Shown here one piece after another: positions 4,416 through 14,026 of a DNA stretch of 64,000 bases. The notes beneath the pieces are model-generated. The model was not told the DNA's origin. It ran no database searches and worked only from the letters and a program-made list of their open reading frames with translations. Each line of letters starts with the position of its first letter. Positions within the stretch are counted from its first letter, which is position 1. Position numbers and translations under genes: made by a program. This DNA comes from Planctomycetota bacterium (GTDB lineage: Bacteria > Planctomycetota > UBA8108 > SXIK01), in the NCBI GenBank assembly GCA_965223845.1, contig CBDCXR010000004.1:2176001-2240000 (forward strand), read 5' to 3'.

Positions 4416-4590
4416 TTCGCACCCTTCGCTCCGGGGGCGACGACGCATCCGCCCACGCGAAGGGAGCAAACGAGTGTGGGGCTCCCGAGTTGAGCGCCCA
4501 TGACGCTCGATCGAGAGTCGAGATGAGTGACCGAGACCTGACGCGGCGCCGGCGCCGCGGGTGCTGGCTCTGGCAATCGGGACCTTAGCG

Positions 4591-5427
4591 ATGGCGAAGA
4601 AGACGACGAAGAAGAAATCGGCGGCCGCCGCTAAGTCGAAGAAGAGCCCGGCGAAGAAGAGCCCGGCGAAGAAGAAAAGCCCCGCGAAAAAGAAGACCCC
4701 GGCGAAGAAGAAGGCGGCTGCGAAAAAGACGAGCGCGAAAGCCGGCGCGGGGAAGAAGAAAGCCGCCCCGAAGAAGAAGACCCCCGCGAAAAAGAAAGCC
4801 ACCGCCAAGAAGGCACCGGCGAAGAAGACCGCCAAAAAGAAAACCGCCGCAAAGAAGACGGTGGCGAAGAAAGCCGCCGCAAAAAAGGCGAGTACGAAGA
4901 AGGCCCCGCGGTCCGCCGCCTCCAGTACGGCGAAGAAGAAATCGTCCGCGAAATCCCCGGCGCGGGCCGCGGCCTCGGCCGCTACGCTTCGCGGATTCGA
5001 CGACGCCGCCGAGAAGCCGATCAAGCCTCGGAAAACACCCAAAAATATGCGGTCGGGACTCGGACGGATTCGAAAGGCCCTGATCGCAAAGCGTGAAGTC
5101 CTCAAGCAGCAGCTTCAGTCCGAGCTGAGCGAGCTCGAGCGTCCGGAGAAAAGGCATCGAGCCGATCTCGAGGAGATCGCGAGCGATACGCACGACACCG
5201 ATTCGCTCTGCCACATCATGGACATCAACTCGAGCCAGCTCGATCAGATCGACGCGGCGATCGCGAAGATCGACGCCGGGACGTACGGAATCTGCGAAGA
5301 TTGCAACGAAGAGATTCCGCTCCCTCGACTCGAAGCGCTCCCCTTTGCCACCCAGTGCATCGAGTGCAAGAAGAAGGCCGAGGTCGAGGCGCAGTTTTCG
5401 TCGTTCTACGGCGGTTACGAACGCTGA
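4591..5427 (+). CDS. TraR/DksA C4-zinc-finger protein with long N-terminal histone-H1-like Lys/Ala-rich region
   Basis: ATG at 4591; ~130 aa of KK(S/T)PAKK/KKAAAKK repeats, then coiled coil with DLEEIA tip and GTYGICEDC..IPLPRLEALPFATQCIEC. Confidence 0.9.
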   Translation: MAKKTTKKKSAAAAKSKKSPAKKSPAKKKSPAKKKTPAKKKAAAKKTSAKAGAGKKKAAPKKKTPAKKKATAKKAPAKKTAKKKTAAKKTVAKKAAAKKASTKKAPRSAASSTAKKKSSAKSPARAAASAATLRGFDDAAEKPIKPRKTPKNMRSGLGRIRKALIAKREVLKQQLQSELSELERPEKRHRADLEEIASDTHDTDSLCHIMDINSSQLDQIDAAIAKIDAGTYGICEDCNEEIPLPRLEALPFATQCIECKKKAEVEAQFSSFYGGYER

Positions 5428-5457
5428 CGTTCGCGTCCGTGCGTAGACGTTGGACTC

Positions 5458-5659
5458 GGCCGAGCGGAGCGCGACGGACTCGACGCTGACTCCCGGCAGC
5501 TCGGCTAAGAAACAGCCACTCCGACCGGGACGCGGCCAAGAACTGGCCGGAATCGGTAACTCCCTTTGCATGAAAGAGTTACCGGAATGAGGCGGTTCGA
5601 GCTGACGCTGGAAGAGCGCAGTTTTTGGCCGTCCGGTCCATCAGGGCCAGTGCTCGGCC
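5458..5659 (+). ncRNA. Candidate structured ncRNA (long irregular hairpin), family unknown
   Basis: Nested complementarity: 5458-5465/5652-5659, 5534-5545/5619-5630 (12 bp, one G-U on + strand), 5554-5562/5576-5584. Confidence 0.35.
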
Positions 5660-5737
5660 TGCGGAGCGAGCCATCGAATCAAGGGCAACCCTCGACTAGG
5701 TAAGCACTTAGACAAATATCGATCCGATCTGGATTCG

Positions 5738-5753
5738 AGGCCCATGGGTTGCT
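5738..5753 (+). promoter_or_regulatory. sigma54-like -24/-12 promoter
   Basis: AGGCCCATGGGTTGCT: GG(5739-40)-N10-GC(5751-52) with TTGCT at -12; the -24 box deviates from TGGCAC. Confidence 0.4.
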
Positions 5754-5763
5754 TAGTAGTGCA

Positions 5764-5951
5764 CCCGAGAGAGGGTAGGGATGCAGCCGTGGGATGATTT
5801 CGAGGAGTGAAGGGCTCCTCGGGTCGCGGGTATGGTTGGAGGGCGGGGAATGAGGGAAGTCGGAGGGCCGAGGGCACCCACGATTCTCTTGAGACTTGCT
5901 TCATTTCTTACGGAAGGGCGCCAGAGAAGACGGTCTGGCGTCCTTTTTTTT
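5764..5951 (+). ncRNA. Candidate G-rich small RNA with repeated AGGG/GGA motifs
   Basis: Lies between the sigma54-like promoter and a strong terminator; 11 GGG tracts in 5773-5874 and 8 GGA; no credible ORF. Confidence 0.4.
5916..5951 (+). terminator. Rho-independent terminator
   Basis: GGGCGCCAGA/TCTGGCGTCC 10 bp stem, 8 nt loop, followed by T8. Confidence 0.85.
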
Positions 5952-6469
5952 GTTCGCGAACACGGGCCGGGACACGGTGGTGACCGGTCATGGGATGTGC
6001 GGGACTTGGTCGCGGCCCGAACGGGATTTTTTTTTTGCGCGCGACACGGTCGGGATCTACCATGACCTTCAGACTCGGTGAAGTCGGGCGGCAGGGACAT
6101 CGGTTCCGGCGCCAGGTGTAGGAGCTTCGTTAGAGTCTCGTTCGATCGCCGGCTCGATTCTCCGAATCGGCGGATCGACTCTCAGCTACGAAATTCGCAA
6201 GGGGGGGTCGGGCAGTCAAGGAGTGGCGCAACGAAGAACGTTCGCGGTCCGGCTGTTAGCGGATTGGTGGGGCGGTCTCAGTACCGCTCTTCACCGAGGC
6301 CGAGAGTCGGCCTCTCCGAGGATCGGATCGTGACGTCAGGATCAGCGACGCTCAGTGGCCGAAACTGGTCGCCGTAACCACGCGGCGGTCGCTTCGAACG
6401 AGCCCCAGATCCCCCAGCGGGCAACGATCCGCCCGAGCTTAGATTTTTCATTTTTTTCTCCTCGTTTGT

Positions 6470-6501
6470 GCCCCCTCGTGTTCCGCACGGGGGGGTTTTT
6501 T
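6470..6501 (+). terminator. Rho-independent terminator
   Basis: CCCCCTCGTG-TTCCG-CACGGGGGGG followed by T6. Confidence 0.85.
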
Positions 6502-6803
6502 CATTGCGAACGCTTGGGGTAGTCTCCGCGCGCGCGGGCCCGCGAAGCGGCGAATCGTGAGACCGCCGATCCCAGCCGAGAGGAAGCGTTCCCGGACTAC
6601 ACGCACCGAGCTCTAGGGGTCTCAGCGTCGTGCTCGACGAATCGTTCTGAGGAACTCAGGATTCCCCGGGCGAGCCGACCCCGAGGAACTCTCGCAGAAG
6701 CACTCGGCGTCGCGGCCCTAGCGGCGCTGGTCGTGGGACTTCTCGCTGCGGACCCCTCACGCCTCAAACGTCGCGGTGACGAAGTGGGTCGGAGCGTTCG
6801 ACC

Positions 6804-7046
6804 TCAATGGTCGTTTGTCGGCGGCGTTCTGCTTCCCAGGAGCCGGTTTAGACCGAACCCTCCGCCGACGATCGCGAAGGCCACGGAAAGCCGGAGAGCC
6901 CAATCGAGGTACCCGTCCACCAGCGATCCAAGGACGAATCCGACGACCGGAAAGCCTACGAGTAGAAGCGCGATTCTCAGTCGGGAAGCGATCGTCCACT
7001 CTCCTGCCGTCTCTTTCCCTACCGTCGATCGTCGAGCGCACGACAT
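6804..7046 (-). CDS. Small two-helix membrane protein, AtpZ/AtpI-like
   Basis: Pattern 'VGFVLGSLVDGYLDW..AFAIVGGGFG' resembles AtpZ family GxxxGxxxD hairpin proteins; start uncertain. Confidence 0.55.
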   Translation of the reverse strand: MSCARRSTVGKETAGEWTIASRLRIALLLVGFPVVGFVLGSLVDGYLDWALRLSVAFAIVGGGFGLNRLLGSRTPPTNDH

Positions 7047-7114
7047 TCCCGCCGCTCATCAAGCCGATAGCTCGGCTCCCGCGACGACGCGCATCTGGCC
7101 GGGACAAACGGGCG

Positions 7115-8347
7115 CTACTCGCACCCGAGCGAATCGGTGATCTGCGAGTCGCGGCCGGGCTGCGGGTAGGGATCGAACGGCGCACGACCGCCCGCGAACA
7201 AATGGAGGGCGAGCGAGATCGCGTCCGAGATCACGATCGAGCCGTCGTCGTCGAAATCTGCCGCGTCCTCGCAGGGGAATCCGGCTCCCTGATAGAGCCC
7301 CGCGAGGACTCCGACGACATCGGAGAGATTGACGCTTCCGTCGCGATTCACGTCACCGCGGACGAAGAGCTCGGTGGGCTCGACGACATCGACGCGGAGG
7401 TCGCAGACCGAATAGAACTGAGGGCGGCCGTCCCGCGACAGCTCGTTCACGATCGCTGGCGACGTCGCCGTTTCGGGAATCGAATGAAACTCGATCTCGT
7501 AGCGGTCGCCCGGCCGCGCGTCGTCTGAAATGCCGAACTCGAGCCACGCGATCGTCTGATCGTGGAGAGCGGGGAGCGTCGCAAAGGTGTCGCCGAACGT
7601 CATCGCTGCGGTAAGGGCGAGAAAACCCTCGTCGAGCTGCCCGTCGAACTCGTGGACCCACGCCGGGGCGACGTCCACTCGATCGTACACGGCACCGCTC
7701 ACGTCCAGGCCTTTGAAGCGGATCTCCGGCGCCGACGAGTGGAAACTGAGAGTGAAACCTTCCACCGCGCCCGTCGTCGTCAACTGCACGGGCACACGCA
7801 CGGAGCGCTGACCCGGAATCACCTCGACGTGGCGACGAAAGTGAATGAACTCGAGATCCGCGACTCCGTCGTCGTGGGATTCGCAGGGTCCCCGGTGGCG
7901 GACGAAGCTCGCCGCGCCTTCCGCCTCCGCGTCGCGATCGTCCGCTCCCTTCGCGTCACGAGCGATCGGAAGCACCGGGCGCGGACCGCTCTCGCAGCTC
8001 AGTGAGTCGAGCGTGGAGTCCGTTCCGAGCACCTTGTACGGCGGGGGGATCGGGCTATGCCGATAGAAAAGCGTTCCTACGAGGTAGAGCGGATCGACGA
8101 GATCCAAGTGGCCACTGTCGTCGACGTCCGCGGCGTCCTCGCACCCGATCGACTCGCCGAGGTGCATATGGCGAAGGATGGTGAACACATCGGCGAGACT
8201 CAGAGCCCCGTCGGAATTCGCGTCCCCGCGATAGAAGGACGAGTCCGCCGCGCGCGCGGGCGCGGACAACCCAACGACACCGAACAACAGGCCGAGAAGC
8301 AGAATTCGGTACGCCCACCGGCCGCCGGCGATCCACCGAGCGTCCAT
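7115..8347 (-). CDS. Secreted protein with N- and C-terminal dockerin-like (paired EF-hand) domains and a central cohesin-like beta-sandwich
   Basis: Signal peptide ending APARA; FYRGDANSDG..CEDAADVDDSG..PPPY and FVRGDVNRDG..CEDAADFDDDG..DPYP; central VRVPVQL..VEGFTLSF. Start set at MDARW (8347). Confidence 0.8.
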   Translation of the reverse strand: MDARWIAGGRWAYRILLLGLLFGVVGLSAPARAADSSFYRGDANSDGALSLADVFTILRHMHLGESIGCEDAADVDDSGHLDLVDPLYLVGTLFYRHSPIPPPYKVLGTDSTLDSLSCESGPRPVLPIARDAKGADDRDAEAEGAASFVRHRGPCESHDDGVADLEFIHFRRHVEVIPGQRSVRVPVQLTTTGAVEGFTLSFHSSAPEIRFKGLDVSGAVYDRVDVAPAWVHEFDGQLDEGFLALTAAMTFGDTFATLPALHDQTIAWLEFGISDDARPGDRYEIEFHSIPETATSPAIVNELSRDGRPQFYSVCDLRVDVVEPTELFVRGDVNRDGSVNLSDVVGVLAGLYQGAGFPCEDAADFDDDGSIVISDAISLALHLFAGGRAPFDPYPQPGRDSQITDSLGCE

Positions 8348-8708
8348 TCTCGATACGTTCCCCAGACTCTTGGAAATCCACTCCGAGGGCTCGGAGATTT
8401 CGAGATCTATCTTCGCCGACCCGCGCGCGAAGAACAAAGACATTCGCGCTGCGTTGCGGACCTGTGCGGGGCCCCCCGACGCTCGCCCGATTCGACGGAG
8501 AGCTCGCAGCACGCCCACCGTCTCCCCCAAACCCAGCGACGCCAGCTCCGACCTCACGATGGCCTGCGACTCCGATTGAGCATGAGCCGGAGTGAGAACA
8601 AAAGTTCCCAGATGGACTGATCGGCGTAAATCGCGATTGGCGTCGGCGTCGTCTCTGCTTTTCTTAAGATACTGGTACCAAACGAATTATGATTCTTTAC
8701 GACGCTGC

Positions 8709-8724
8709 TGGCACGATCGTTGCA
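8709..8724 (+). promoter_or_regulatory. sigma54 (RpoN) -24/-12 promoter
   Basis: TGGCACGATCGTTGCA matches TGGCACG-N4-TTGCW exactly; AT-rich tract just upstream (about 8658-8700). Confidence 0.8.
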
Positions 8725-8845
8725 ATACGAACCACCGACCCACCGGGCGGGCGTGGAATCCCTGGAGCGAGTGCCACGACGACCTGTCCTCTCCGGACAG
8801 TGGGGCACAGACGAGAGAGAAGGGTTCGGGATTGGGATTTCTTGT

Positions 8846-11800
8846 CTAGCGCCTCGCTCCGGGGCTCTTTTGCCGCGCCGGTCGCCGGTCGCGACCGCGG
8901 TACGCGTCGACGTCGACTCCATGTTTTTCGATGAGCGTCGTCAAGTGGCGCCGGGTCACATCGAGGGCGCGAGCCGCCGCCGACACGTTACCCGAATAGC
9001 GCTCGAGAGCGCGCCGGACGCCGTCCGCCTCGGCCGCCGCTTTCGCTTCGCGGAGCGGCCGAACTTCCTCGTCGACGTCGAGCGGCGGAGACGGCTCTTG
9101 CCCGCGGAGGCACAAGTGATCGACGTCCTCCGCGGCGATCTCGAGGGGCGAGTGAAGCGCCAGGCGCAGTAGCTCGTTCTCCAGCTCCCGGACATTCCCC
9201 GGCCAGTGGTAGCTCTCGAGCACGGCGAGCGCGTCGGGGTGAAGAAACGGCCGACGGATCCTGTTCGTTTCGGCAAGTTCGTCGAGTACGGCTTCGGCGA
9301 TTTCGGCGATGTCGCCTCGACGAGCTCGGAGGGGAGGCATTTCGACGACGAGTCCGCCGAGTCGATAGAAGAGGTCGGGCCGCACGAGCCCGCCGGCGGC
9401 GAGTGTCTCGCGACTCTGCCGACTCGAGGTTACGAGGCGAAACTCGACTCCGCGCGATGTCGTCTCTCCGACGCGGCGGACCTGCGCTTCTTCGATGACG
9501 CGGAGAAGCTTGGATTGAACCACCACATCGACATCGGTGATCTCGTCGAGATAGATCGTCCCGCCCGCGGCGGCTTCGAAGATTCCGGGCCGATCTTCGA
9601 TCGCATCGGTATACGCGCCGCGTGCGACACCGAAGAGCTCCAGCTCGAGCAGACTCGGGGGCGTATTGCAGATTCCAGCCACGAACGGCTTTTCCCGTCT
9701 CTCGCTCGCGTAATGGATCCACCGCGCAAGGAGATCCTTCCCCACGCCGCTCTCGCCGACGATGAGGACCGGAAGATCGCTCTCCGCCAGCGCGGGGATG
9801 CGATCGACCACGCGCTTCATGTCGGGAGAGCTCCCGACGAGTGGCCGCGGCCGGGATCCGCCCGTCGAGGTACGAAGATCGAGACGGGCCGTGCGGACGG
9901 CGGGGGTCGTCCCGATCGGTTCCGTGCCGATTTCCTTGTTCCCGCTCACGACCTGAGCGTGGAGCGAACGAAGATGATCCTCCGCTTCGGCGAGTCGCTG
10001 CGAGCGCGCCGATAGTTCCTTTTCCGCGGCGGCGAGAGCCGCGGCGAGACGAACGACGACGACCCCCCAATCCACTGCGGCATCGAGATCAGCCGGTGAG
10101 CCTCGGCCCGGCGCGCGCAAAGCGAGCACCGAATCGTCCTCGACACCGCCGATCCGCCGGAGAAGCCACCGGTCCCAGATCGATCGCCCCGTCCCGCCGG
10201 AGGCGAGTAGGTCGCGCCAAACTTCCTCGGGACACGAACGAAGCTCCGACCGCTGTGCGCTCGGCGGAAACGCAGCGACCGAAACGGCGCTCCCAGACTC
10301 GATCCGTAGGACGACAGCCGCAGCAACGGACCACGGGCGGTGCTCGGCACAGAGCTCCCGGAGCGCATCCCGTACCCCGCGGTGGCTTTCGTCGTCTCCC
10401 GTCGACTCGTCGTCGGCGCGGTCGCTCCACCACGCGGCGTCGAACGACGCTCGACGCTCCTCCGGCACGCTCCGACGCACGTGCGCAACATGCGTGTCGA
10501 GCATGACGCGAAGCTCCGGCGCGCCGCTCCGAGCGACCTCGACACGAAGCGCGAGCAAGACTTCCCAGCGCCACCCGGCGCGAGCGGATTCGCGGCACCG
10601 CGAGGCGAGCGCGCGCGGGTCGACGTCTGCGTCGAATCGGGCGCGAATCAGCTCGCCGGCGAGACGAGTCCGCGTCGATGCCGTCCTCCCTCCGGTCCGC
10701 GCGAGCCACCGTCGCGCGGATCGAGTCCGACCGAGAGTGAGGAGCACGCGAACGAGTTCGATCCTCGACTGTTCGAGGCGAAGCGCATCGCGAACTCGGC
10801 GAGCGAACGTGCCGCTCCGCCGCAGATGCGGAATCGCCTCGCGCGGGCGATCGAGGCCGGCGAGCGCGCGGCCGAGCGCGTACTCGCAGTACCCGAGAGC
10901 GCGGAGATCCGCGGCTTCGCGCGCGCGCGTGAGCGCGTCCGACAAGAGCTCGAGGCCACGCGAAGATCCCAGAACCCACTCGATCACGCCCTCGTAGCAG
11001 ATCGTCAGCGGAAGCAACCGCCGGCTCTCGGTTTCGCGCGCGAGGCGAACCGCCTCGCGGCTGTGCTCCCGGCTGCGTCCGAGCCGACCGAGCTCGAGGT
11101 AGAGCTCGGCGATGTTGTTGTGCGCGAGAATCCGGTCGTCGACCCGCGTCTCCGTCCCCGCACGGAGGACGCGGCGATAGAACCGGAGCGCAGCCCGAAA
11201 CTCACCGCGCTCGCGGAGCACGCCGCCGAGTCCCAACCAAACCGTCGCGACGAGGGGATGCGTTCCGAGGTCGGAGGCGAACCGACGCGCCCGGTGGAAG
11301 CACTCCTCCGCACGATCGAGGCGTCCGAGCCGATAGTGAGCGACGGCCTGGTTGAAGGTCGCTCGAAGCGCGTTGGCGCGATCCCCGCGCGAGGTGGCCT
11401 CGCGTTCGAGTCGCTCAAAGACTGCGAACGCGCGCTCCCACTCGAGCGAGCGCACGTGGAGGATTCCCAGCTCGTTTAGGATCGCCGGTGCGTCGCCCTC
11501 TCGAGCGCTCCCTTCGGCTGCGGCGACGACCGACTCGAGGAGCGAGCGAGCGAGCGCCCGATCGCCGTGACTCGAGTGCGCCGCCGCGAATTGCGCGGCG
11601 ATCCGAATGCCGGCGAGCACGCGCAGCTCCGGCGTCGCGCGGCGAAACCATGAGCGAAACTCCGCCGCTCTCCCGAGATGATCGCGCCCTTCGGTCGTGC
11701 GTCCTTCGCGAAAGAGGAGAGGCGCCGCGAGCGAGGCGAGTTCGAGTCGTCGCGCGGCCGAAACCGCATCCTCCGGGGAACTTTCGTGTGCGGATTCGTC

Positions 11801-14026
11801 GCAGAGGATCTCGATCGCCTCGGGCGCTCGCCCCGCGGCGATCAGGAGCTTTGCTCGCTTCTTCGCGAGCGCAAATCGTTCGCCCTCGCGCGTAGGCGCG
11901 AGATTCGTTTCATCGAGCATGTCGAGCGCGTCGCCGTGGCGCCCGCAGGCTTCGTACGCGGCCGCGATGCGAAGAGAAAGCGCCACGCTCGTCGGCGACG
12001 GAGTCCCGCCGGTGAGTTCCCCGTGGAATCGCGAGCGCATGAGGTCGTAGAGCTCGATGAGAAGCCGCGGCTCCGTGCGCCGAATGAGACGCGGCGCCAG
12101 GCGACGAAGCCGGCGCTCCTCGGCTCGGCAGGACGCCCCGGCGCCCGCGCCGCTCGGCCCTCCGAGCGCGACGTCGTTTCGGAGCGCCGCGATGGCGGAA
12201 GAGAACCTCACGCGACGACGCTCATCGGAGAAGTAGCGCGCGAGCGAGCGACGCGCCTCGGTCAGCTCTCGAGCGCCGAGGAGCTCCTCCGCCGGCGGGA
12301 CGCAGCTCCGCACGATCCGCACTCGACCGTCGCCGTCGTCGCTACTGAGGCCGAGGTGAACGAACCGCGCCACGGAGCGTTGCCATTGGGAACGCGCCCG
12401 GTGGGGGAAGCGTTCGGCCAACTCGTCCGGAGAGAGTGGCTCTCCACCTAGGATGAGCTCTCCGAGCGCTCGGCGCTCGTTGTCGCTGAGCGTCTCGAGG
12501 ACCGGAAACGAAGAGTCCTCGGGCTTCCAGTCGGGGAGCTCACCGACGGCGAGATCGCCGAAAGCATCTGCGCACACGTTACGCCGTTCGAGCTCCGCGA
12601 GCATCGCGAGAAGGATCGCCGGACTACCGGTCGCACCGGTGGACAACCAAGCGGACAACTTCTCCGGCAGGGACTCCGCGACGAAGAATCTCCGTGCCGC
12701 CTCGTCCATCTCCCTAGTCGACAGGGGATCGATGTCGACACGGACGATCGCCTTCGGGTCGACGCCCAGGGCGACCGCGATCGAATCGGGAGTCCGAGTC
12801 GCGATCGCTGCGGCGAAGGCCCCGCCCCGGCGCTTCATTTGCTGAATGAGATCGGCGAATCGGTCGCCGCCCGGGTCGGCAGCCGGCTCGGAAGTGACGT
12901 CGACGAGGATCGTCACTCGGGCGCGACGACAACGCTCGTAGATCCCGGCGCGCTCGTTCGCGCCCTGCAGCCCCTCGGCCTCGCCGGCATCGCGAAGCGC
13001 GCGCAAGAGCTCGGCCTCCGCCTCGGGATCGCTGAATCCGCGAGCGATCACGACGCGTCTCCCTCGCACGCGGAGCGGCGCGGCGATCGCCTCGAGCATC
13101 GCCCGCGCCGCGTCGGGGAGCGGGCTGAACACGACGGGGAGTCGATCACCGCGGGCGACCGTATCGGCGAGTTCGGCGATCGCGTCGCTACGACCTGCGA
13201 GCCAAAGCCGGTGGTGGAGGCGGGCGACGGGCCGCGGCGGCAGCGCGATGCGTTCGCGGAGAAACTCGAGCGCGTCGCGAGCAGTTCGAAACCTCTCTCG
13301 AGGATCGGGATCCGTCAGCCGGCGTACCAACTCGTCGAGAGTCGGTGGGACATCGTCGAGCGCGTCGCGAAGACGTGCAGGCACGCCGCGCGCGCGCCAA
13401 TCCTCGACGGCGCGAGGTCGACCGAGTACGAACGGCAAGCGTCCCACCGCCGCATGAAAGAGAGAGAGGCCGAATCCGTAGAGATCGATCCAAGGATCAC
13501 TTTCCTGTCCCGGCGCGACCTGCGGCCGGTACGCCGGCGTCCCGTCGTCGGACGCGAGGAACGGTCGATCGAATCGGCGAGCCGACGCGAAATCGATCAG
13601 CCGGAGCGCGTCGCTCTCGCCTTCGACGAGGAGGTTCGCGGGCTTGACATCCCCGTGAGAGATCGAGCGGTGGTGGAGATACGAGAGTGCGGCGAGTCCC
13701 TCTGCTGCTCGCGCGAGCAGCCAGCTCGCGCGACGCGAGAGCTCGACGCGCGCGGCGGCCTCGACGAGGTGGCCCCCCGCGACGTACACGCTCGTGAAGT
13801 AGAAGCCGCCGCCGGGCGCGACGCCGCAGTCGATCACACCGGCGATGTTCGGATGGGAGAGCTCCGCGAGCGTCAAGAACTCCCGTCGCGCGACGGCGCC
13901 GCGAACGGCGATGAGCTTCACCGCGACGAGCTCGTCGTCGCTCAGACGATCACGCGCGAGGACGACCTCTCCGTGCCCACCTTCTCCGAGGGATCGAACC
14001 ACGGAGTAGCGCGGAGGAAGGTCCAT
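8846..14026 (-). CDS. Ser/Thr kinase - degenerate NTPase/TPR - sigma54 enhancer-binding AAA+ - Fis HTH hybrid regulator (1726 aa)
   Basis: Kinase LGEGGHGEV, VAVK, HGDVKPAN, IDFA, GTPAY; central TPR-like helices; GESGVGKD, ELFG..GAYTDA, YLDEI, RPDLFYRL, WPGNVREL, GNVSAAARAL. Confidence 0.92.
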   Translation of the reverse strand: MDLPPRYSVVRSLGEGGHGEVVLARDRLSDDELVAVKLIAVRGAVARREFLTLAELSHPNIAGVIDCGVAPGGGFYFTSVYVAGGHLVEAAARVELSRRASWLLARAAEGLAALSYLHHRSISHGDVKPANLLVEGESDALRLIDFASARRFDRPFLASDDGTPAYRPQVAPGQESDPWIDLYGFGLSLFHAAVGRLPFVLGRPRAVEDWRARGVPARLRDALDDVPPTLDELVRRLTDPDPRERFRTARDALEFLRERIALPPRPVARLHHRLWLAGRSDAIAELADTVARGDRLPVVFSPLPDAARAMLEAIAAPLRVRGRRVVIARGFSDPEAEAELLRALRDAGEAEGLQGANERAGIYERCRRARVTILVDVTSEPAADPGGDRFADLIQQMKRRGGAFAAAIATRTPDSIAVALGVDPKAIVRVDIDPLSTREMDEAARRFFVAESLPEKLSAWLSTGATGSPAILLAMLAELERRNVCADAFGDLAVGELPDWKPEDSSFPVLETLSDNERRALGELILGGEPLSPDELAERFPHRARSQWQRSVARFVHLGLSSDDGDGRVRIVRSCVPPAEELLGARELTEARRSLARYFSDERRRVRFSSAIAALRNDVALGGPSGAGAGASCRAEERRLRRLAPRLIRRTEPRLLIELYDLMRSRFHGELTGGTPSPTSVALSLRIAAAYEACGRHGDALDMLDETNLAPTREGERFALAKKRAKLLIAAGRAPEAIEILCDESAHESSPEDAVSAARRLELASLAAPLLFREGRTTEGRDHLGRAAEFRSWFRRATPELRVLAGIRIAAQFAAAHSSHGDRALARSLLESVVAAAEGSAREGDAPAILNELGILHVRSLEWERAFAVFERLEREATSRGDRANALRATFNQAVAHYRLGRLDRAEECFHRARRFASDLGTHPLVATVWLGLGGVLRERGEFRAALRFYRRVLRAGTETRVDDRILAHNNIAELYLELGRLGRSREHSREAVRLARETESRRLLPLTICYEGVIEWVLGSSRGLELLSDALTRAREAADLRALGYCEYALGRALAGLDRPREAIPHLRRSGTFARRVRDALRLEQSRIELVRVLLTLGRTRSARRWLARTGGRTASTRTRLAGELIRARFDADVDPRALASRCRESARAGWRWEVLLALRVEVARSGAPELRVMLDTHVAHVRRSVPEERRASFDAAWWSDRADDESTGDDESHRGVRDALRELCAEHRPWSVAAAVVLRIESGSAVSVAAFPPSAQRSELRSCPEEVWRDLLASGGTGRSIWDRWLLRRIGGVEDDSVLALRAPGRGSPADLDAAVDWGVVVVRLAAALAAAEKELSARSQRLAEAEDHLRSLHAQVVSGNKEIGTEPIGTTPAVRTARLDLRTSTGGSRPRPLVGSSPDMKRVVDRIPALAESDLPVLIVGESGVGKDLLARWIHYASERREKPFVAGICNTPPSLLELELFGVARGAYTDAIEDRPGIFEAAAGGTIYLDEITDVDVVVQSKLLRVIEEAQVRRVGETTSRGVEFRLVTSSRQSRETLAAGGLVRPDLFYRLGGLVVEMPPLRARRGDIAEIAEAVLDELAETNRIRRPFLHPDALAVLESYHWPGNVRELENELLRLALHSPLEIAAEDVDHLCLRGQEPSPPLDVDEEVRPLREAKAAAEADGVRRALERYSGNVSAAARALDVTRRHLTTLIEKHGVDVDAYRGRDRRPARQKSPGARR

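Follow-up and report, generated by a model that had tools for sequence, protein, structure and literature searches.

A conserved cluster of three predicted small RNA genes beside a giant sigma54 activator gene in uncultured Planctomycetota

Introduction

In myxobacteria, the gene for the Pxr small RNA is intergenic, lies right after the sigma54 activator gene nla19, has its own predicted sigma54 promoter and is conserved across genera (excerpts of PMC5568312). Here we describe a comparable arrangement in a 64,000-nt stretch of DNA, hereafter the window, from a Planctomycetota bacterium (assembly GCA_965223845.1, contig CBDCXR010000004.1, positions 2,176,001 to 2,240,000), in which a gene for a fusion of a Ser/Thr kinase, tetratricopeptide repeats (TPR) and a sigma54 activator is accompanied by three predicted RNA genes, designated A, B and C. 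Like Pxr, RNA A lies beside a sigma54 activator gene, has its own putative sigma54 promoter and is conserved across genera. The two systems differ in the regulator, since Nla19 is a receiver-domain protein and not a kinase-TPR fusion, and in orientation, Pxr being in tandem with its activator gene and A convergent, as far as the same excerpts go. In addition, Pxr has no known partner RNA, and no sequence match to it in Rfam was obtained here.

In Enterobacteriaceae, the GlrK/GlrR-sigma54-GlmY/GlmZ pathway uses an activator-driven decoy RNA to control a second small RNA (excerpts of PMC3045617 and PMC4152352). RNA A is proposed below to act on RNA B in a similar manner, as a sigma54-driven decoy. 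The glmY gene lies beside its two-component genes. GlmY, however, mimics GlmZ for the protein RapZ without base pairing, and is a homologue of GlmZ, whereas A is complementary to B. In Vibrio, small RNAs are the main output of the activator in the LuxO-sigma54-Qrr system (excerpts of PMC10162802), and a small RNA driven as output by an activator and sigma54 is also what we propose for A. The Qrr RNAs require Hfq and pair with mRNAs, whereas hfq was not found in the present genome (91.7% complete) and the one strong partner is a small RNA. The qrr1 gene adjoins luxO.

In Bacillus subtilis, RosA pairs with the seed of RoxS, a C-rich anti-ribosome-site RNA, and limits RoxS without an Hfq hub (excerpts of PMC8216469). 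The predicted A-B pairing would likewise be that of a sponge RNA with a C-rich anti-ribosome-site seed; the sequences are unrelated, and the A-B interaction is predicted only. To our knowledge, RosA is neither sigma54- nor activator-driven. These comparisons suggest that the circuit proposed here is a variant of known logic, that of activator-adjacent sigma54 RNAs and of sponges, with no sequence relation to Rfam families. Our literature searches found no report of small RNA regulation in Planctomycetota among the 15 and 12 top-ranked matches (of ~650 per query), and a 2025 sigma54-regulon survey that covers the phylum contained 0 occurrences of small RNAs. We read the locus as a conserved cluster in which an activator-driven decoy, A, opposes a constitutive anti-ribosome-site RNA, B, accompanied by the sigma54-driven C. 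As a whole this reading seems to us evenly balanced; judged from sequence, all three RNA genes are very likely genuine.

The activator gene and the sigma54-type sites

The activator gene occupies 8846..14026 on the - strand as a single open reading frame (ORF) of 1726 aa, identified by Pfam and its translation. The product matches Pkinase (E 8.6e-26, residues 7-250), TPR_12/TPR_MalT (886-1009), Sigma54_activat (PF00158, E 5.2e-49, residues 1396-1559) and AAA_lid_14, and the translated kinase domain retains VAVK, HGDVKPAN and DFA. A full-length orthologue (37% identity) is present in the related genome G003, and orthologues also occur in other genera of the order. A first-pass annotation of the window had reported this giant gene together with two + strand sigma54-type promoters, exact at 8709 and partial at 5738, neither followed by a credible protein gene. 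The gene and both sites are there, and the ORFs behind them do not look genuine: those within 5428-7115 lack the codon pattern of genuine genes in this DNA (GC1 high, GC2 low, GC3 high), and ORF 8720..9172 runs antisense to the helix-turn-helix (HTH) region of the activator. Two further expectations of that annotation were borne out, as rpoN is encoded in two copies (Sigma54_DBD, E 1.8e-58 and 4.6e-56) and the promoter-terminator units recur at the same places beside orthologous activators in other genera.

Promoters were scored over the 12 positions of TGGCACG-N4-TTGCW (wider consensus YTGGCACGrNNNTTGCW, with GG and GC doublets 10 nt apart). The -24/-12 promoter of RNA A (TGGCACGATCGTTGCA, 8709..8724, + strand) scored 12/12 and the sigma54-type promoter of RNA C (AGGCCCATGGGTTGCT, 5738..5753, + strand) 9/12. 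The 8709 site is the sole exact TGGCAC-N5-TTGC in the window, and is one of four 12/12 sites in the 7.9-Mb genome. Genome-wide, exact TGGCAC-N5-TTGC was found 9 times against ~17 expected from base composition, and is thus not enriched; the 5738 site keeps GG-N10-GC with 2 mismatches, and such sites number 25 in the window against 29 expected, which is the chance level. Because of these counts, sequence matches alone prove little, and it is conservation that carries the case for both sites. Sites scoring >=10/12 have a background of 0.005 per 300 nt. Elsewhere in the present genome, several of the 23 sites scoring >=11/12 precede pilin-like, ClpB-like and Hsp20-like genes.

RNA A

RNA A (8735..8872, + strand, ~138 nt) is predicted to start downstream of the -12 GC and to end after a hairpin at 8851-8865 followed by TCTTTTG. 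Its promoter was observed in 8/8 genomes where A was found, scoring 10-12/12 and lying 140-340 nt from the 3' end of the activator gene. The score was 12 in the present genome and G003, 11 in G012, and 10 in G016, G001, G014, G017 and G005. Judged by this conservation, sigma54-dependent transcription of A is highly probable.

Upstream of the promoter lies a palindrome (GAGAACAAAAGTTCCC, 8594..8609, on no particular strand) with the core GAAC-N4-GTTC at 8596-8607, a candidate binding site for the activator. The palindrome (T)GGAAC-N4-GTTCC(A), or a one-off variant, was present 100-135 nt upstream of promoter A in 7/8 loci (~115 nt in the present one), and in 5 further metagenome contigs it was found 1.7-1.96 kb downstream of B. 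It is followed after ~20 nt by a GTAAA box (8626..8630, + strand; TGTAAA in relatives), a conserved column block in the 7-genome alignment, and then by an AT-rich stretch (8659-8703). GGAAC-N4-GTTCC has just 6 occurrences in the whole genome, and the combination of GAAC-N4-GTTC with a sigma54 site of >=10/12 within 40-220 nt was found in that genome solely at this locus, apart from one weak case. Adjacency and the conserved palindrome make the neighbouring gene product the most likely activator of A, and we lean towards this assignment.

Among relatives, RNA A is 90-290 nt long and variable in sequence, with strong terminators. One stretch, GGGGCACARRCGAG(A/G)AGA, is constant in 12 sequences and is usually single-stranded between a hairpin and the strong terminator. 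In the window, the A motif (GGGGCACAGACGAGAGAGAA, 8802..8821, + strand) is the complement of the seed of RNA B described below. When the motif was searched for across the phylum, matches were found in 11/401 genomes against 6 reversed-control matches, which is the chance level outside the order. Extra A-motif matches in five relatives look like coding DNA and were set aside.

In the window, the predicted 3' end of RNA A runs across the final 27 nt of the activator ORF, which is encoded on the other strand, and the convergent arrangement is shared by 7/8 genomes. RNA A could accordingly control the activator gene in cis, as an antisense RNA or by transcription interference, through convergent transcription into its 3' end. 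We consider this improbable, since strong terminators stop A before the activator stop codon in G012, G014, G016 and G017, and since A points away from the activator in G005 and lies inverted with respect to B in the metagenome loci L097 and L108. In these last three cases the promoter and the RNA are inverted as one unit, as would fit a self-contained gene, which speaks against an exclusively antisense function at the 3' end of the activator gene.

RNA B

RNA B (6070..6501, + strand, ~430 nt) is predicted to start behind a sigma70-type promoter (6027..6063, + strand) composed of a T-run (6027-6036), a -35 element TTGCGC (6035-6040), a 17-nt spacer and a -10 element TACCAT (6058-6063). A block of this type (T-run, TTGCS, ~17 nt, TAGAAT-like) lies 60-90 nt past the C terminator in 6/6 aligned genomes. 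In relatives RNA B is 250-300 nt long, and its body, of 250-440 nt, is unconserved. At its 3' end, 6441-6501 forms an island of near-identity to G003 in non-coding DNA, which contains the invariant seed (TTTCATTTTTTTCTCCTCGTTTGTGCCCCC, 6446-6475, + strand; conserved across relatives), the terminator stem (6471-6495) and T6 (6496-6501). B ends in UUUCAUUUUUUUCUCCUCGUUUGUGCCCCC, likewise invariant; the terminator begins with the CCCCC of this sequence. In the stem, 96.7% of the aligned cells are paired, with double changes in 3 pairs. The invariant 3' end UUUCAUUUUUUUCUCCUCGUUUGUG mirrors CGAGGAGAAAAAAAUGAAA, an ideal ribosome-binding site with its start codon, which is why we interpret B as a probable blocker of translation.

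On the opposite strand the same block reads as a perfect ribosome site (GGAG-N7-ATG), raising the alternative that it is the - strand leader of a small protein, with A as a paralogous leader. A Shine-Dalgarno sequence with ATG is present on the - strand in 6/9 genomes, and the present genome has an ORF of 57 aa there (6278..6451). However, the - strand ORFs at B, of 4, 14, 56 and 57 aa, are unrelated and have no coding signature, and no - strand ATG exists in G012 and G016 or in the metagenome loci L091, L094, L111 and L112. Furthermore, the T-run behind the hairpin occurs on the + strand only, in all cases, and the U-G wobbles of the stem would be A.C on the - strand. The unrelated ORFs and the missing ATGs lead us to read B on the + strand, and we regard the leader as very improbable. 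No conserved ORF was found at B on either strand, and the small ORFs there lack a coding signature. The G-U wobbles on the + strand in the stems of both B and C point to RNA-level selection on that strand.

Complementarity of A and B

In the present genome, the A motif occurs at A and at the antisense of B, and nowhere else. The predicted A-B duplexes have energies of -34.2 to -40.9 kcal/mol in 7/7 genomes that carry both RNAs (-36.4 kcal/mol in the present one), compared with shuffled means of -14 to -18 kcal/mol, and in each genome 0/500 shuffles reached the energy of the actual duplex. Across the 12 A sequences (8 genomes and 4 metagenome contigs), the 10-nt core of A varies at 4 positions, by C/U or A/G changes only, and 13/13 variant cells remain pairable through G-U or U-G. 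A G-to-A change in the B seed of G005 is matched by a C-to-U change in A, which is a compensatory change, and in G014 the edge of the G-run contains a single A.C mismatch. We find it reasonably probable that the A-B pairing is functional.

The hairpin and motif of A resemble the reverse complement of the seed and terminator of B, and an ancient inverted duplication could therefore be the origin of the complementarity. The two RNAs would then act separately on mRNAs or proteins of their own, or the blocks would be DNA elements. The A variants would suit such a relic, as all of them are transitions, which are common anyway and generally dominate, and just one change is truly compensatory. Nevertheless, the complementarity persists across three families, while the surroundings of the A motif have diverged beyond alignment; all variant cells can pair, the single change in the B seed is matched in A, and the stem wobbles indicate selection at the RNA level on the + strand. 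We consider the relic unlikely and retain a functional pairing of A with B as the preferred reading.

Four other pairings were examined and rejected as compositional, since shuffles frequently reached their values: the C seed with A (33/300), the B seed with the C body (209/300), the C seed with the C body (130/300), and a C/U-rich RNA candidate at C4:540646, described in the last section, with the C body (229/300).

RNA C and the CsrA-sponge reading

RNA C (5764..5951, + strand, ~188 nt) is predicted to consist of a G-rich body with AGGGUR repeats, a CU-rich 3' part (ACTTGCTTCATTTCTTACGGAAGG, 5894-5917) and a terminator (5912-5943) followed by T8. The 3' part with CCCAUUUCUCCUUUUACUUGCUUCAUUUCUUACGGAAGGG is invariant among relatives; the present genome keeps its second half only. 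Positions 5894-5950 are identical to G003 at 56/57 nt. In an 8-genome alignment, 93.2% of the cells of the terminator stem are paired, with double changes in 4 pairs, and the fold of RNA C is unusually stable (z -3.46). The sigma54-type site was found in 7/7 genomes, scoring 10-11/12 in G003, G012, G016, G014, G007 and G005. It also scored >=9/12 in 11/13 metagenome contigs with the C seed, one of the exceptions being cut 88 nt upstream. RNA C is thus probably sigma54-dependent, the link again being drawn from conservation. When targets of the C seed were sought with <=5 mismatches, one weak 5-mismatch match was obtained besides the antisense of C itself. Neither B nor C was found in G001, whose contig ends right after A.

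The first-pass annotation had placed a short G-rich stretch ending in a terminator-like hairpin behind each sigma54 site, and had proposed that the activator switches on RNAs that sponge a protein, in the manner of CsrB/RsmZ. The first claim stands behind the 5738 site, where the G fraction is 0.48 with 8 GGA and the hairpin (5912-5951) has 14 pairs plus T8, but not behind the 8709 site, which is followed by a weak hairpin only. As for the second, A and C would titrate CsrA through repeated GGA. RNA C does share with CsrB/RsmZ a non-coding nature, repeated G-rich motifs and a terminator end, with 6-13 GGA per RNA in 7 genomes, and CsrA is present in some Planctomycetia (excerpts of PMC12316311). 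On the other hand, the csrA gene that this reading needs was not found: CsrA (PF02599) has 0 matches in the present genome (91.7% complete), and occurs in 2/21 genomes of the order and in 1 (G007) of 9 B carriers. The GGA-rich stretch of A is not conserved among relatives, the conserved part of A being a single motif of 15-20 nt complementary to B, an RNA absent from the first-pass annotation, and the repeats of C are AGGGUR and not GGA in hairpin loops, with unconserved loop placement. With Rfam 15, the whole window gave nothing at gathering scores, and 5400-9000 gave nothing at E <=5, whether for CsrB, RsmY and RsmZ or for Qrr, GlmY/Z, Pxr and all other families. Since csrA was not found here and occurs in so few genomes of the order, the CsrB/RsmZ-type sponge fails as an explanation, and we hold it to be extremely improbable. 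What survives of the earlier proposal is that the small RNA units are conserved and that A, with its palindrome, lies beside the activator. Co-location, which had been the sole link noted between the RNAs and the activator, is now joined for A by the conserved palindrome and the retained adjacency; for C it is still the only link, because the motif upstream of C differs from that of A.

Distribution of the cluster

An exact 20-mer of B was found in 7/185,579 species genomes besides the present one. The B seed was also present in 22 metagenome contigs, and in 21 of these a hairpin and T-run follow directly, the 22nd contig being cut. An AT-rich lineage (GC ~0.37), represented by L063 (1950-3440; contig C25 of the 1.2-Mb metagenome-assembled genome G419), L096 and L107, has the exact B seed with a TTGCGT-17-TATACT promoter and a terminator. 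B there lies 70 nt before an M23-peptidase-like ORF, and the palindrome seen at A, here as TTGGAACGATCGTTCCAA, is located 1404 nt downstream between convergent ORFs. Shortly downstream of RNA B in a contig of G012 (C118; L054 ~1660-1740), a tandem 17-nt repeat (GCCGTTTTTCGTCGAAC-like) adjoins a run of N.

The proposed circuit

In the circuit that we propose, the kinase-TPR activator would most likely switch on A via the palindrome at 8594-8609 and the sigma54 promoter. B would be made constitutively from its housekeeping-type promoter and would most likely block translation starts. A would offer a copy of a ribosome site that lacks the start codon (GGGGCACARRCGAGAGAGA), and could pair with the B seed over 15-21 bp. 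When the activator fires, A would sequester B as a decoy or sponge, or both RNAs would be destroyed together, and in either case the targets of B would be relieved. C would add to the cluster a second RNA driven by sigma54, which combines a G-rich body with an invariant CU-rich seed of its own.

Tentatively, and with less confidence than in any of its parts, we extend this to a broader statement: in an uncultured and apparently Hfq-less order, a eukaryote-like Ser/Thr kinase joined by a TPR sensor to a sigma54 activator may have a single dedicated output, the decoy A, which would neutralise B and free its targets, possibly secreted dockerin-type proteins, with C in the same cluster. The three RNAs would then represent new families, and theirs would be the first regulatory RNA circuit to be described in this phylum. 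The locus brings together three conserved RNA genes whose promoters and terminators are clear. It also gives one of the numerous giant sigma54 activators fused to kinases in these bacteria a plausible dedicated output, and offers a specific RNA-RNA pair in which a compensatory change has occurred naturally. It raises the questions of what the kinase-activators control and of how base-pairing RNAs function without detectable Hfq or CsrA, in a clade that is narrow and uncultured. What the sequences show is conservation, promoter motifs, covariation in the terminators and complementarity; function is inferred throughout, from transcription and dependence on the neighbouring activator to the pairing of A with B in the cell and the direction of control.

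Besides the transitions and the inverted likeness of A and B discussed above, several observations weigh against the proposed circuit. The sigma54-contact loop of the activator is GAYTDA and not GAFTGA (orthologues have GSFTGA in one case, GAFTGA in three, GAFTDA in two and GAFSGA in one), and its C-terminal HTH_8 match (Fis-type) scores 20.6 bits, beneath the 22-bit Pfam cut-off. The genome contains >23 matches to sigma54 activators, several of them within frames of 1700-2000 aa, so a different paralogue could drive A or C. RNA A of the window has a weak terminator and folds no better than shuffles (z -0.80), and C has no GGAAC palindrome, carrying upstream repeats of AAACCGGCC(A/G) instead. 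The spread of the cluster is limited, as the B seed (<=2 mismatches) was detected in 9/21 genomes of the order (0 control matches), and no sigma54, activator or A-like motif was found in G419, the assembled genome of the AT-rich lineage. The candidate partners of B given below are post hoc leads, and dockerin matches, at least 145 in the present genome, are very common.

Partners of B were sought in the present genome by an 8-mer-prefiltered scan of 4100 sites. One candidate is the ribosome site ACACAACGAGGAGAGAGAAAUG of a 479-aa secreted dockerin-type protein (C4:1055582), with a predicted energy of -36.0 kcal/mol. Another is an A-like arrangement of hairpin, GAGGGCGCAAACGAGGAAGAAGA and terminator (T5) at C4:6402100-6402200 (L090), with -36.6 kcal/mol. 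For the dockerin-type gene of the cluster itself, the complementarity of its 5' region to the seeds of A, B and C was no better than that of shuffles. The 479-aa gene is the middle of three tandem paralogues (C4:1055552-1057021), and the flanking two score -26.4 and -17.1. The A-like element of L090 sits in the purine-rich 3' untranslated region of another dockerin-type gene.

Neighbouring genes and other elements

Gene order is fully syntenic between the present genome and G003 (PFK, dockerin-type gene, activator, LysR). The secreted dockerin-repeat protein gene (7115..8347, - strand; 410 aa from ATG, with a signal peptide) lies between B and A; its Pfam Dockerin_1 match is borderline, and the gene is syntenic in G003. 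In G014 and G017, C-terminal dockerin-like ends precede B. A homology search at the DNA level found the flanking DNA unalignable to 40 relatives, with one short spurious match only, and the intergenic DNA of the locus has no paralogues in the present genome. No tRNA or tmRNA was found.

Directly upstream of RNA C (window 4561-5427, + strand) is a gene for a C4 zinc-finger protein of the DksA/TraR type, whose N-terminal extension is long and rich in Lys, Arg and Ala; the gene is missing at the syntenic position in G003. Between RNA B and the dockerin-type gene (window 6804-7046, - strand) is an 80-aa ORF with a hydrophobic stretch and an ambiguous coding signature (GC by codon position 0.64/0.52/0.65). 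Elsewhere in the present genome, at C4:540646 (L088 347-500), ~130 nt of non-coding, C/U-rich sequence (ACCCUAACCCAACCCUUCCUC) and then a hairpin come after another sigma54 site that scores 12/12. This unit is convergent with a - strand ORF, and is a further candidate for a sigma54-driven small RNA.

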